Assembly: GCF_036507355.1 (NCBI RefSeq)
Contig: NZ_AP027877.1
Reading direction: 5' to 3' (one strand)
Source of the DNA: Escherichia coli
GTDB lineage: Bacteria; Pseudomonadota; Gammaproteobacteria; Enterobacterales; Enterobacteriaceae
DNA length: 64,000 bases
The notes beneath the pieces are model-generated. The model was not told the DNA's origin and searched no databases. It was given only the letters and a program-made list of their open reading frames with translations. Each line of letters starts with the position of its first letter. The stretch's first letter is position 1. Below, in pieces: positions 11,665 through 12,520 of this stretch. The position numbers and the translations under genes are program-made.

Positions 11665-12520
11665 CAACGGCGACAACATCAATATCGACGTCAACAATTT
11701 CAACCGTATCACCGGTGAGCATCTTACTGATAAGAATATGGCATGGCGGCACAATCAAAACTACCGTAATGGTGTGCCCTATCATGATCAGGATATGGCA
11801 AAGCGGTTTCATCAAACCGATGTCAACGGCGGAATGAGTGCCACGCAGCTACCTGCTCCAACACGCGACAGCCAGCGTCAGGCGGCAGCAAGTCAGTTTC
11901 AGCAACGAACACACGCCGCCCCCGTCATTACACGAGATACCCAACGTCAGGCAGCGGCACAGCGGTTTAATGAAGCTGAACACTATGGGAGCTATGACGA
12001 CTTCCGCGACTTCAGCCGTCGCCAACCACTGACCCAGCAACAAAAGGACGCCGCTCGTCAGCGTTATCAGTCAGCTTCTCCTGAGCAGCGCCAGGCAGTT
12101 CACGAGAAAATGCAGACTAACCCGCAGAACCAGCAGCGAAGAGAGGCAGCGCGTGAGCGCATTCAGCCCGCCTCGCCTGAGCAGCGCCAGGCAGTCCGCG
12201 AGAAAATACAGATTAACCCACAGATCCAGCAGCGAAGAGACGCAGCGCGTGAGCGTATTCAGTCAGCCTCGCCTGAGCAGCGCCAGGTGTTTAAGGAAAA
12301 AGTACAGCAGCGCCCACTGAACCAACAGCAACGTGATAACGCCCGCCAGCGTGTTCAATCAGCATCACCTGAACAACGTCAGGTTTTTCGGGAGAAAGTT
12401 CAGGAGAGCCGCCCACAACGTCTAAACGACAGTAACCATACTGCCAGGCTGAATAACGAGCAACGGTCAGCAGTACGCGAACGTCTCTCTGAGCGCGGAG
12501 CAAGGCGACTGGAAAGGTAA
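11665..12520 (+). pseudogene. yacH: yacH 3' portion downstream of the IS insertion (Gln/Arg-rich repeat region)
   Basis: Frame continues from the target duplication (…HNGDNINIDVNNFNRITGEH…) to the stop at 12518-12520; contains the QRQAV/SPEQRQ repeats recalled for the YacH C-terminus. Confidence 0.85.
12062..12420 (+). repeat. Tandem 96-bp repeats (about 3.7 copies) inside the yacH 3' portion
   Basis: Units start at 12062, 12158, 12254 and 12350, each encoding a ...RQRxQSASPEQRQAVxEKxQxNPQxQQRRxAARERIQ-like 32-aa repeat. Confidence 0.8.

Follow-up and report, generated by a model that had tools for sequence, protein, structure and literature searches.

The 3' part of yacH in this Escherichia coli sequence carries an ordinary in-frame coding minisatellite, that is, four complete head-to-tail units of 96 bp at positions 12026-12409 on the + strand, and the number of these units differs among E. 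coli strains by whole units. The gene itself is already inactive in this strain. We think that the best explanation of the array is recurrent gain and loss of whole units with little or no effect of the copy number on the phenotype, and we put the probability of this reading at roughly 85%. All positions are those of the window, by which we mean the whole 64-kb stretch of DNA (64,000 nucleotides) that was analyzed.

Position and unit structure of the repeat array

The gene order in the window is acnB (- strand, 6483-9233), yacH (+ strand, 9435-12520), and then lpd and aceF (- strand). The region 11667-12590 (924 nt, including the whole array and the intergenic sequence as far as lpd) was 100% identical to the corresponding region of E. 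coli O145 str. RM9872, in which an intact yacH of 1854 nt, located between acnB and lpdA, encodes a DUF3300 domain-containing protein of 617 aa. This identity to an annotated yacH bears out the placement of the repeat in the 3' part of this gene, which had been made in an earlier sequence-only reading. In the intact RM9872 ortholog, DUF3300 (PF11737) was found at aa 75-333 with an E value of 2.1e-78 and a score of 263 bits (cut-off 25), and it was the sole Pfam family of the protein. Thus the array sits in a gene with a DUF3300 match but outside the domain, and the repeat region (aa 453-580) gave no Pfam or NCBIfam family above threshold.

Tandem Repeats Finder reported a period of 96 at 12026-12287 (2.7 copies, 83% matches, score 363). 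The autocorrelation over 12026-12420 showed an identity of 0.746 at lag 96 and of 0.665 at lag 192, and the next best lag gave 0.377; the maximum among 1000 codon shuffles was 0.465. When the sequence was compared with itself at lag 96 in a sliding manner, the similarity began at about 12026 and ended at 12313 (plus 96). The array therefore consists of exactly 4.0 units. The flanking 96-nt blocks are unrelated to the units (17-38% identity), and the next 96 nt downstream, 12410-12505, showed an in-register identity of 17-27% to them. The units and the neighboring features are as follows.

12026-12121, + strand: unit 1 (in-register repeat search)
12122-12217, + strand: unit 2, 77% identical to unit 1
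12218-12313, + strand: unit 3, 73% identical to unit 1
12314-12409, + strand: unit 4, 69% identical to unit 1
12074-12277, + strand: most similar pair of units in the SPEQRQ phase (A and A'), with about 84-86 of 96 nt identical (phase scan and 24-nt windows at lag 96)
12410-12520, + strand: non-repeated C-terminal tail of YacH, RPQRLNDSNHTARLNNEQRSAVRERLSERGARRLER, and the stop codon, with 17-27% in-register identity to the units

The sequence-only reading had proposed a 96-bp tandem repeat at 12062-12420. The repeat search revealed four in-register copies. The proposed interval covers the same array, but it was read 36 nt out of phase, so that it lacks the first 36 nt and runs 11 nt beyond the end. 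It is because of this shift that the array had appeared as three full units and one partial unit, a count that is equivalent to four units once the phase is corrected.

The period corresponds to 32 codons, and all four units are translated in the yacH frame. Each unit encodes a Gln/Arg-rich module of 32 aa, which can be written as P(L/Q)xQQ(Q/R)(K/R)(D/E)xAR(Q/E)R(Y/I/V)QxASPEQRQ(AV/VF)xEK(M/I/V)Qxx; the 32-residue module quoted earlier agrees with this translation. The array as a whole contains 24% Gln and 16% Arg, with a net charge of +11. The pairwise identity between the units was 65-79% at the DNA level and 62-72% at the protein level.

For the comparison of alleles it is convenient to read the array from SPEQRQ. 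In this phase it begins with a partial leader PLTQQQKDAARQRYQSA, which is followed by two A-type units (SPEQRQAV.EK.Q.NPQ.QQRR.AARERIQ.A) and one unit of the C type (SPEQRQVFKEKVQQRPLNQQQRDNARQRVQSA); the last unit, D, is truncated and continues directly into the unique tail. All alleles have this tail in conserved form. Within it, NNEQRSAVRERL looks like a faint echo of the SPEQRQAVREK motif.

Copy number of the unit among E. coli strains

To count the units in other strains, we used the two flanks only as a BLAST query against 5,426 complete E. coli genomes and took 60 rows at even steps down the ranking. The rows were distributed as follows.

Span of 821 nt (flanks plus 384 nt, four units): 32 of 60 rows
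Span of 725 nt (three units): 21 of 60 rows
Three units together with a 69-bp upstream deletion: 1 of 60 rows
Left flank alone aligned: 5 of 60 rows; both of the two that were fetched have three units
Strongly divergent allele: 1 of 60 rows

That is, a span of either 821 or 725 nt was obtained in 53 of the 60 sampled genomes, and at least 24 genomes carry three units. Roughly 55% of the collection would thus have four units and roughly 40-45% three, as estimated from 60-row samples of a collection in which K-12 laboratory derivatives are over-represented, which inflates the four-unit class. A second sample was taken with B2 flanks. Only 9 of its 60 rows were resolved, since megablast missed the 111-nt right flank of most other lineages, and this sample is useful for the B2-type subset only; seven of the nine rows had three units (including Nissle 1917) and two had four.

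The annotated proteins showed the same steps. Intact YacH is annotated with 617 aa (four units) and with 585 aa (three units), and the protein database also contains a YacH of 648 aa with three identical A units, which represents a five-unit allele (P0004). These lengths differ in steps of a whole unit of 32 aa. The expectation that the C terminus of YacH would be length-polymorphic through the repeat copy number was therefore correct, as alleles with three, four, and five units exist. Only three and four copies are common, and five is rare.

The two major alleles follow the lineages. Three units were found in B2 and ST131-type strains, and four in K-12, O157, and O145. This distribution indicates that the polymorphism is old and was mostly inherited or spread by recombination, rather than being continually regenerated.

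Architecture of the alleles and the probable events

The A and A' units at 12074-12277 are those whose number varies among the type I alleles with three, four, and five units, as the allele comparison showed. Two architectures were found among the three-unit alleles. One is A-C-D, which occurs in 2009C_3996, C51, CT265, ECOCN22, SCU-106, and ST131-type strains. The other is A-A'-D, which occurs in the B2 strains clone D i2, DS566-2, GU2018_CL13, and Nissle-like strains (Nissle 1917). The array of the B2 allele ends in a hybrid unit, of which the first approximately 64 nt resemble unit 3 and are near-identical to unit 2 of an A-C-D allele (L004). The last 31 nt of this hybrid agree with unit 4 except at one position, and the two parts are joined inside GAGCAGCG|TCAGG. 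Judging from this junction, we regard the hybrid unit as the footprint expected when units 3 and 4 are misaligned and an exchange between them deletes 96 bp. The B2 allele has this hybrid junction, whereas the A-C-D alleles lack one A-type unit, and therefore at least two independent deletions from the four-unit state are required.

The alleles of the K-12 type differ from one another by exact copies of the unit. In the K-12 allele the two A units share an exact lag-96 match of 95 nt, a near-perfect duplication which we call recent. The allele of strain 2009C_3996 is the K-12 allele minus exactly one unit, and the five-unit allele is the K-12 allele plus one. Both these relationships and the B2 hybrid fit unequal exchange or slippage.

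From these observations we propose the following course of events. A 96-bp unit would have been tandemly amplified in the Gln/Arg-rich C-terminal region of YacH in the Escherichia lineage, and whole units would then have been gained or lost by misalignment, either through unequal homologous exchange or through replication slippage. The molecular route would be either RecA-dependent exchange or slippage. As 96 is divisible by three, each event would add or remove one 32-residue module and leave the frame intact. The expected outcome is a length polymorphism (585, 617, and rarely 648 aa) and not an on/off switch. That the copy number has little or no effect on the phenotype is an assumption of this proposal.

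The sequence-only reading also stated that tandem repeats of this length are prone to change. The copy number indeed varies among strains, but the units of the present allele are diverged, and its longest exact match at lag 96 is 22 nt. A length of 22 nt is about the minimum exact match for efficient RecA-dependent exchange. Events that change the number of units may be very rare in the allele of this window, and compared with the 95-nt match of K-12 it would be expected to be far more stable. Thus the array is probably much less unstable than the earlier wording implies.

In these characteristics the array resembles the in-frame coding VNTRs of bacterial envelope and surface proteins. It shares with them the head-to-tail units, a period that is a multiple of three, and the location within an ORF, as well as differences of whole units, hybrid junctions at deletions, and length polymorphism without frameshift. 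It differs from them in its low range of copies (3-5) and in the divergence of its units, and for these reasons its discriminating power is low and its mutation rate is presumably low. A literature search found no paper describing the 96-bp repeat of yacH.

Repeats of this class are also used for typing by MLVA. The scheme for Shigella and E. coli of Gorge et al., cited in PMC4644529, is composed of "ms" loci of 39-375 bp, among which ms11, amplified with the primers GAAACAGGCCCAGGCTACAC and CTGGCGCTGGTTATGGGTAT, is the only 96-bp locus (PMC4644529). We rejected the identity of the array with ms11, as neither primer was present in the 64-kb window at up to 3 mismatches.

Other insertions and deletions in the C-terminal half of YacH

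Changes in length were also found outside the array. The following feature lies upstream of it.

11861-11968, + strand: imperfect direct repeat with a period of 69 bp, encoding TRD(S/T)QRQAAA..., with two 39-nt copies that are 74% identical

Strain 504237 (L009) has lost exactly one 69-bp period, and its YacH is 562 aa long. A segment of 135 bp, which corresponds to about 11915-12055 of the window and lies between HAAP and DAAR, is duplicated in a 662-aa allele found on 19 contigs (P0002). The yacH of strain H22 (L008), which is annotated as a pseudogene with an internal stop, has a deletion of 135 bp in the same region, and by its sequence this deletion is apparently reciprocal to the duplication. 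As read from the sequence, the boundaries of the segment fall at a short shared motif, ACGCCGC. Public YacH sequences also contain a 51-bp duplication, indels of 9-12 nt, and several length variants of the His/Asp tract. These varied indels indicate that in-frame changes in length are generally tolerated in the low-complexity C-terminal half of YacH.

The His/Asp-rich tract at 10338-10409 (DWDDDDHDHYHHDDDNYHHHDGGH) is located in the 5' portion of the gene. Its length varies among E. coli alleles and accounts for proteins of 610, 612, 615, and 616 aa. In composition it looks like a metal-binding low-complexity linker.

Strain AST85 (L012, 704-2563) has a strongly divergent YacH of 619 aa, in which there are two identical units of 34 residues, SPEQRQAFREKVQNQQRPLSQQQRDSARQRIQSA, and not of 32. 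This pair points to an independent duplication or a homogenization in another lineage.

Selection, distribution, and predicted structure

We pooled seven four-unit alleles and calculated pN/pS. The array gave a value of 0.14, and the remainder of the C-terminal 283 codons gave 0.15. These values indicate that the sequence of the module is under purifying selection in intact genes, and the pooled alleles showed no evidence of diversifying selection.

The C-terminal 283 aa were searched with HMMER against 1.84 billion cluster representatives, and 31 matches were obtained at E<=1e-3, most of which were fragments of the same protein. More distant full-length homologues of YacH have one or two degenerate modules. 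As far as these matches indicate, the array is largely confined to Escherichia, while the DUF3300 domain is widespread. Taken together with the units of AST85, this distribution leads us to think that the amplification was an event at the level of Escherichia, with some concerted or independent duplication.

The AlphaFold2 model of the repeat was obtained from an alignment of 8 sequences and had low confidence (mean pLDDT 53, pTM 0.17). It is all-helical, with breaks at NPQ and SASPEQ and with two helices of about 13-16 residues per unit. As a weak indication, the module is probably composed of two short helices, each starting at a break that contains Pro (...NPQ... and ...ASPEQ...). In its sequence the SPEQ start resembles a helix-capping box, and unrelated repeat proteins (P0143 and P0146) contain this tetrapeptide as well.

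Possible roles of the copy number

We considered whether the array might be an adaptive, hypervariable locus of the contingency type, in which the copy number of a surface-exposed module would change often and be selected because it allows antigenic recognition, phages, or antimicrobial peptides to be evaded.

Simple-sequence contingency loci are made of perfect units of 1-9 nt, and the gain or loss of a unit shifts the frame and switches expression. Like the contingency loci of Neisseria and Haemophilus, the array combines repeat-mediated mutation with a location in the coding region of an envelope protein. It differs from them in that its unit of 96 nt is long, imperfect (65-79% identical), and frame-preserving, and it is thus not a perfect short repeat. 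Some facts would suit a selected role. YacH is predicted to be exported or extracellular. One study reports that yacH is regulated by CpxR, lists its protein as extracellular, and describes better survival of protamine in a yacH deletion than in the wild type (PMC9600279). The in-frame indels in the C-terminal half are also many, comprising the 96-bp units, the 135-bp duplication and deletion, the 69-bp deletion, the 51-bp duplication, and the His/Asp tract variants. However, the units here are diverged by 21-35% at the DNA level with exact matches of at most 22 nt, only three and four copies are common and these follow lineages, and a period of 96 nt is unable to shift the frame, so that on/off switching would not occur. 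The pN/pS of 0.14, which is as in the neighboring non-repeated sequence, indicates purifying selection, and therefore the array is not regarded as a contingency locus. The outright loss of the gene also argues for dispensability: yacH is a pseudogene in this window and in E. coli strains H22 and SCU-106, and it is a frameshifted pseudogene in several strains of Salmonella Typhimurium (PMC3391293). That is, yacH is dispensable and has been lost repeatedly. A contingency-type role is accordingly improbable.

Equally improbable in our view is a functional reading in which the SPEQRQ modules would be helical hairpins that bind a ligand or client, similar in their action to the LTXXQ helices of CpxP and Spy but not homologous to them, and in which alleles with three, four, and five modules would tune the envelope stress response or the susceptibility to cationic peptides. 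If the modules were functional in this way, B2 and ST131 strains (three) and K-12 and O157 strains (four) would differ phenotypically through the repeat.

The LTXXQ-motif periplasmic proteins are CpxP, Spy, and ZraP (Pfam PF07813). YacH resembles them in its (L/A)(S/T)PEQ(R/K)Q motifs at the starts of helices, in being exported, and in its regulation by Cpx (PMC9600279). It differs from them in having tandem 32-aa modules after DUF3300, and the likeness is confined to a tetrapeptide of the capping-box type. A relationship to the LTXXQ family of CpxP and Spy (PF07813) was rejected, because no match was obtained at E<=10 with the full protein, the C-terminal 283 aa, or the array alone. DUF3106 (PF11304) gave 15.1 bits with an E value of 0.033, which is below the cut-off of 24.3, and RskA_N was also sub-threshold.

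Inactivation of yacH in this strain

The statement that yacH is a pseudogene in this strain was correct. The features concerned are as follows.

9435-10435, + strand: 5' portion of the yacH pseudogene, with a signal-like N terminus, the DUF3300 domain, and the His/Asp-rich tract
9900-9902, + strand: TGA nonsense codon at yacH codon 156, which is TGG (Trp) in the intact O145 gene (G to A at 9902)
10436-11664, + strand: insertion sequence of the IS3 family, 1229 bp, which splits yacH after codon 333
11668-12520, + strand: 3' portion of the yacH pseudogene, 853 nt, identical to yacH of O145 RM9872

The element at 10436-11664 has inverted ends, TGAATCGCCACGG and CCGTGGCGATTCA, with terminal TG...CA, and it is flanked by a 3-bp target duplication, CAA, at 10433-10435 and 11665-11667. 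It contains orfA (10493-10777) and orfB (10834-11646), and the encoded proteins matched HTH_Tnp_1 (E 4e-20), rve (E 2e-33), and the IS3-family transposase NF033516 (E 8.5e-101). Thus ORFs with an HTH and a DDE rve domain, the TG...CA inverted ends, and the 3-bp target duplication, all of which characterize the IS3 family, are present. Copies that are 99.8-99.9% identical to it occur elsewhere on E. coli chromosomes and plasmids. When the IS and one CAA were removed, the yacH frame was regained; that is, splicing 9435-10435 to 11668-12520 gave 1854 nt, or 617 codons and the stop, the same length as yacH of K-12 and O145.

Among the 5,426 complete E. coli genomes, not one contained the junction between yacH and the IS. 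It was present in a Logan assembly from the read archive, SRR17480487, which matched the window at 5,030 of 5,031 nt and ended inside the IS. In the other E. coli genomes that were fetched, the CDS of yacH is intact at codon 156 and is read through. We read the TGA at 9900-9902 as a second, independent inactivating lesion upstream of the IS. The truncated product of 155 aa was found in a few read-archive assemblies, including SRR17480487.

Since yacH is inactive for certain (TGA at 9900-9902 and IS at 10436-11664), it could be supposed that the repeat has already begun to evolve neutrally and to drift, and it had indeed been described as perhaps now free to drift. This supposition is very improbable, because 11667-12590 is 100% identical to the intact allele of O145 RM9872, the frame continues from the 3' side of the IS to the normal stop without interruption, and neither a loss of a unit, nor a frameshift, nor a substitution was seen in comparison with that allele. 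The array and its flanks are unchanged over 924 nt, and we therefore think that the inactivation was too recent to leave a trace.

The 5' portion was different in this respect. Its 1001 nt contain 38 differences (3.8%) from O145 RM9872, one of which is the nonsense change, whereas the 853 nt of the 3' portion are identical. The yacH of the window is therefore a mosaic of two allele backgrounds, and this suggests a recombination breakpoint in or near yacH.

Reliability and use of the alleles

Tandem repeats are a known source of assembly error, but it is extremely unlikely that the differences in copy number are artefacts of repeat collapse or expansion in draft assemblies, since all the sampled records are complete genomes, the array, at 288-384 nt, is about as long as a single read or shorter and its diverged units can be placed uniquely, the same 585-aa proteins were obtained from assemblies that are unrelated (WP_000784489.1 is shared by strains 2009C_3996 and Res13-Lact-EB12-05, and WP_000784410.1 by strains GU2018_CL13 and EC21GDE043), and the alleles correlate with lineage (B2, ST131, K-12, and O157).

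As an in-frame minisatellite with whole-unit differences, the array offers a marker that can be sized by PCR and that is informative on lineage, with three units in two architectures in B2 (Nissle and clone D i2) and ST131-type strains and with four units in K-12, O157, and O145. For annotation, the YacH proteins of 585, 617, and 648 aa should be treated as allelic variants and not as truncations. The alleles also form a natural series for the study of YacH, which is uncharacterized and regulated by CpxR, and they provide an example of the evolution of a diverged minisatellite, with independent deletions of units, a hybrid junction that can still be seen, and, in K-12, a near-perfect duplication of recent origin. 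The practical consequences are modest, and no new biology is opened by them.

Two observations concern the sequence downstream of the gene. Between the convergent yacH and lpd, the sequence at 12533-12561, AAAAAAAGCGGCGTGGTTAGCCGCTTTTTT, looks by eye like a bidirectional intrinsic terminator, and a simple terminator scan made no call for this hairpin. B2-type strains have about 171 extra bases between yacH and lpdA (clone D i2, L007 1959-2199; also L005, L006, L010, and L011), which are absent from the corresponding region of the window, 12521-12590, and which by eye contain REP/BIME-like palindromic units, for example GTAGGTCGGATAAGGCGTTTACGCCGCATCCGGCA.
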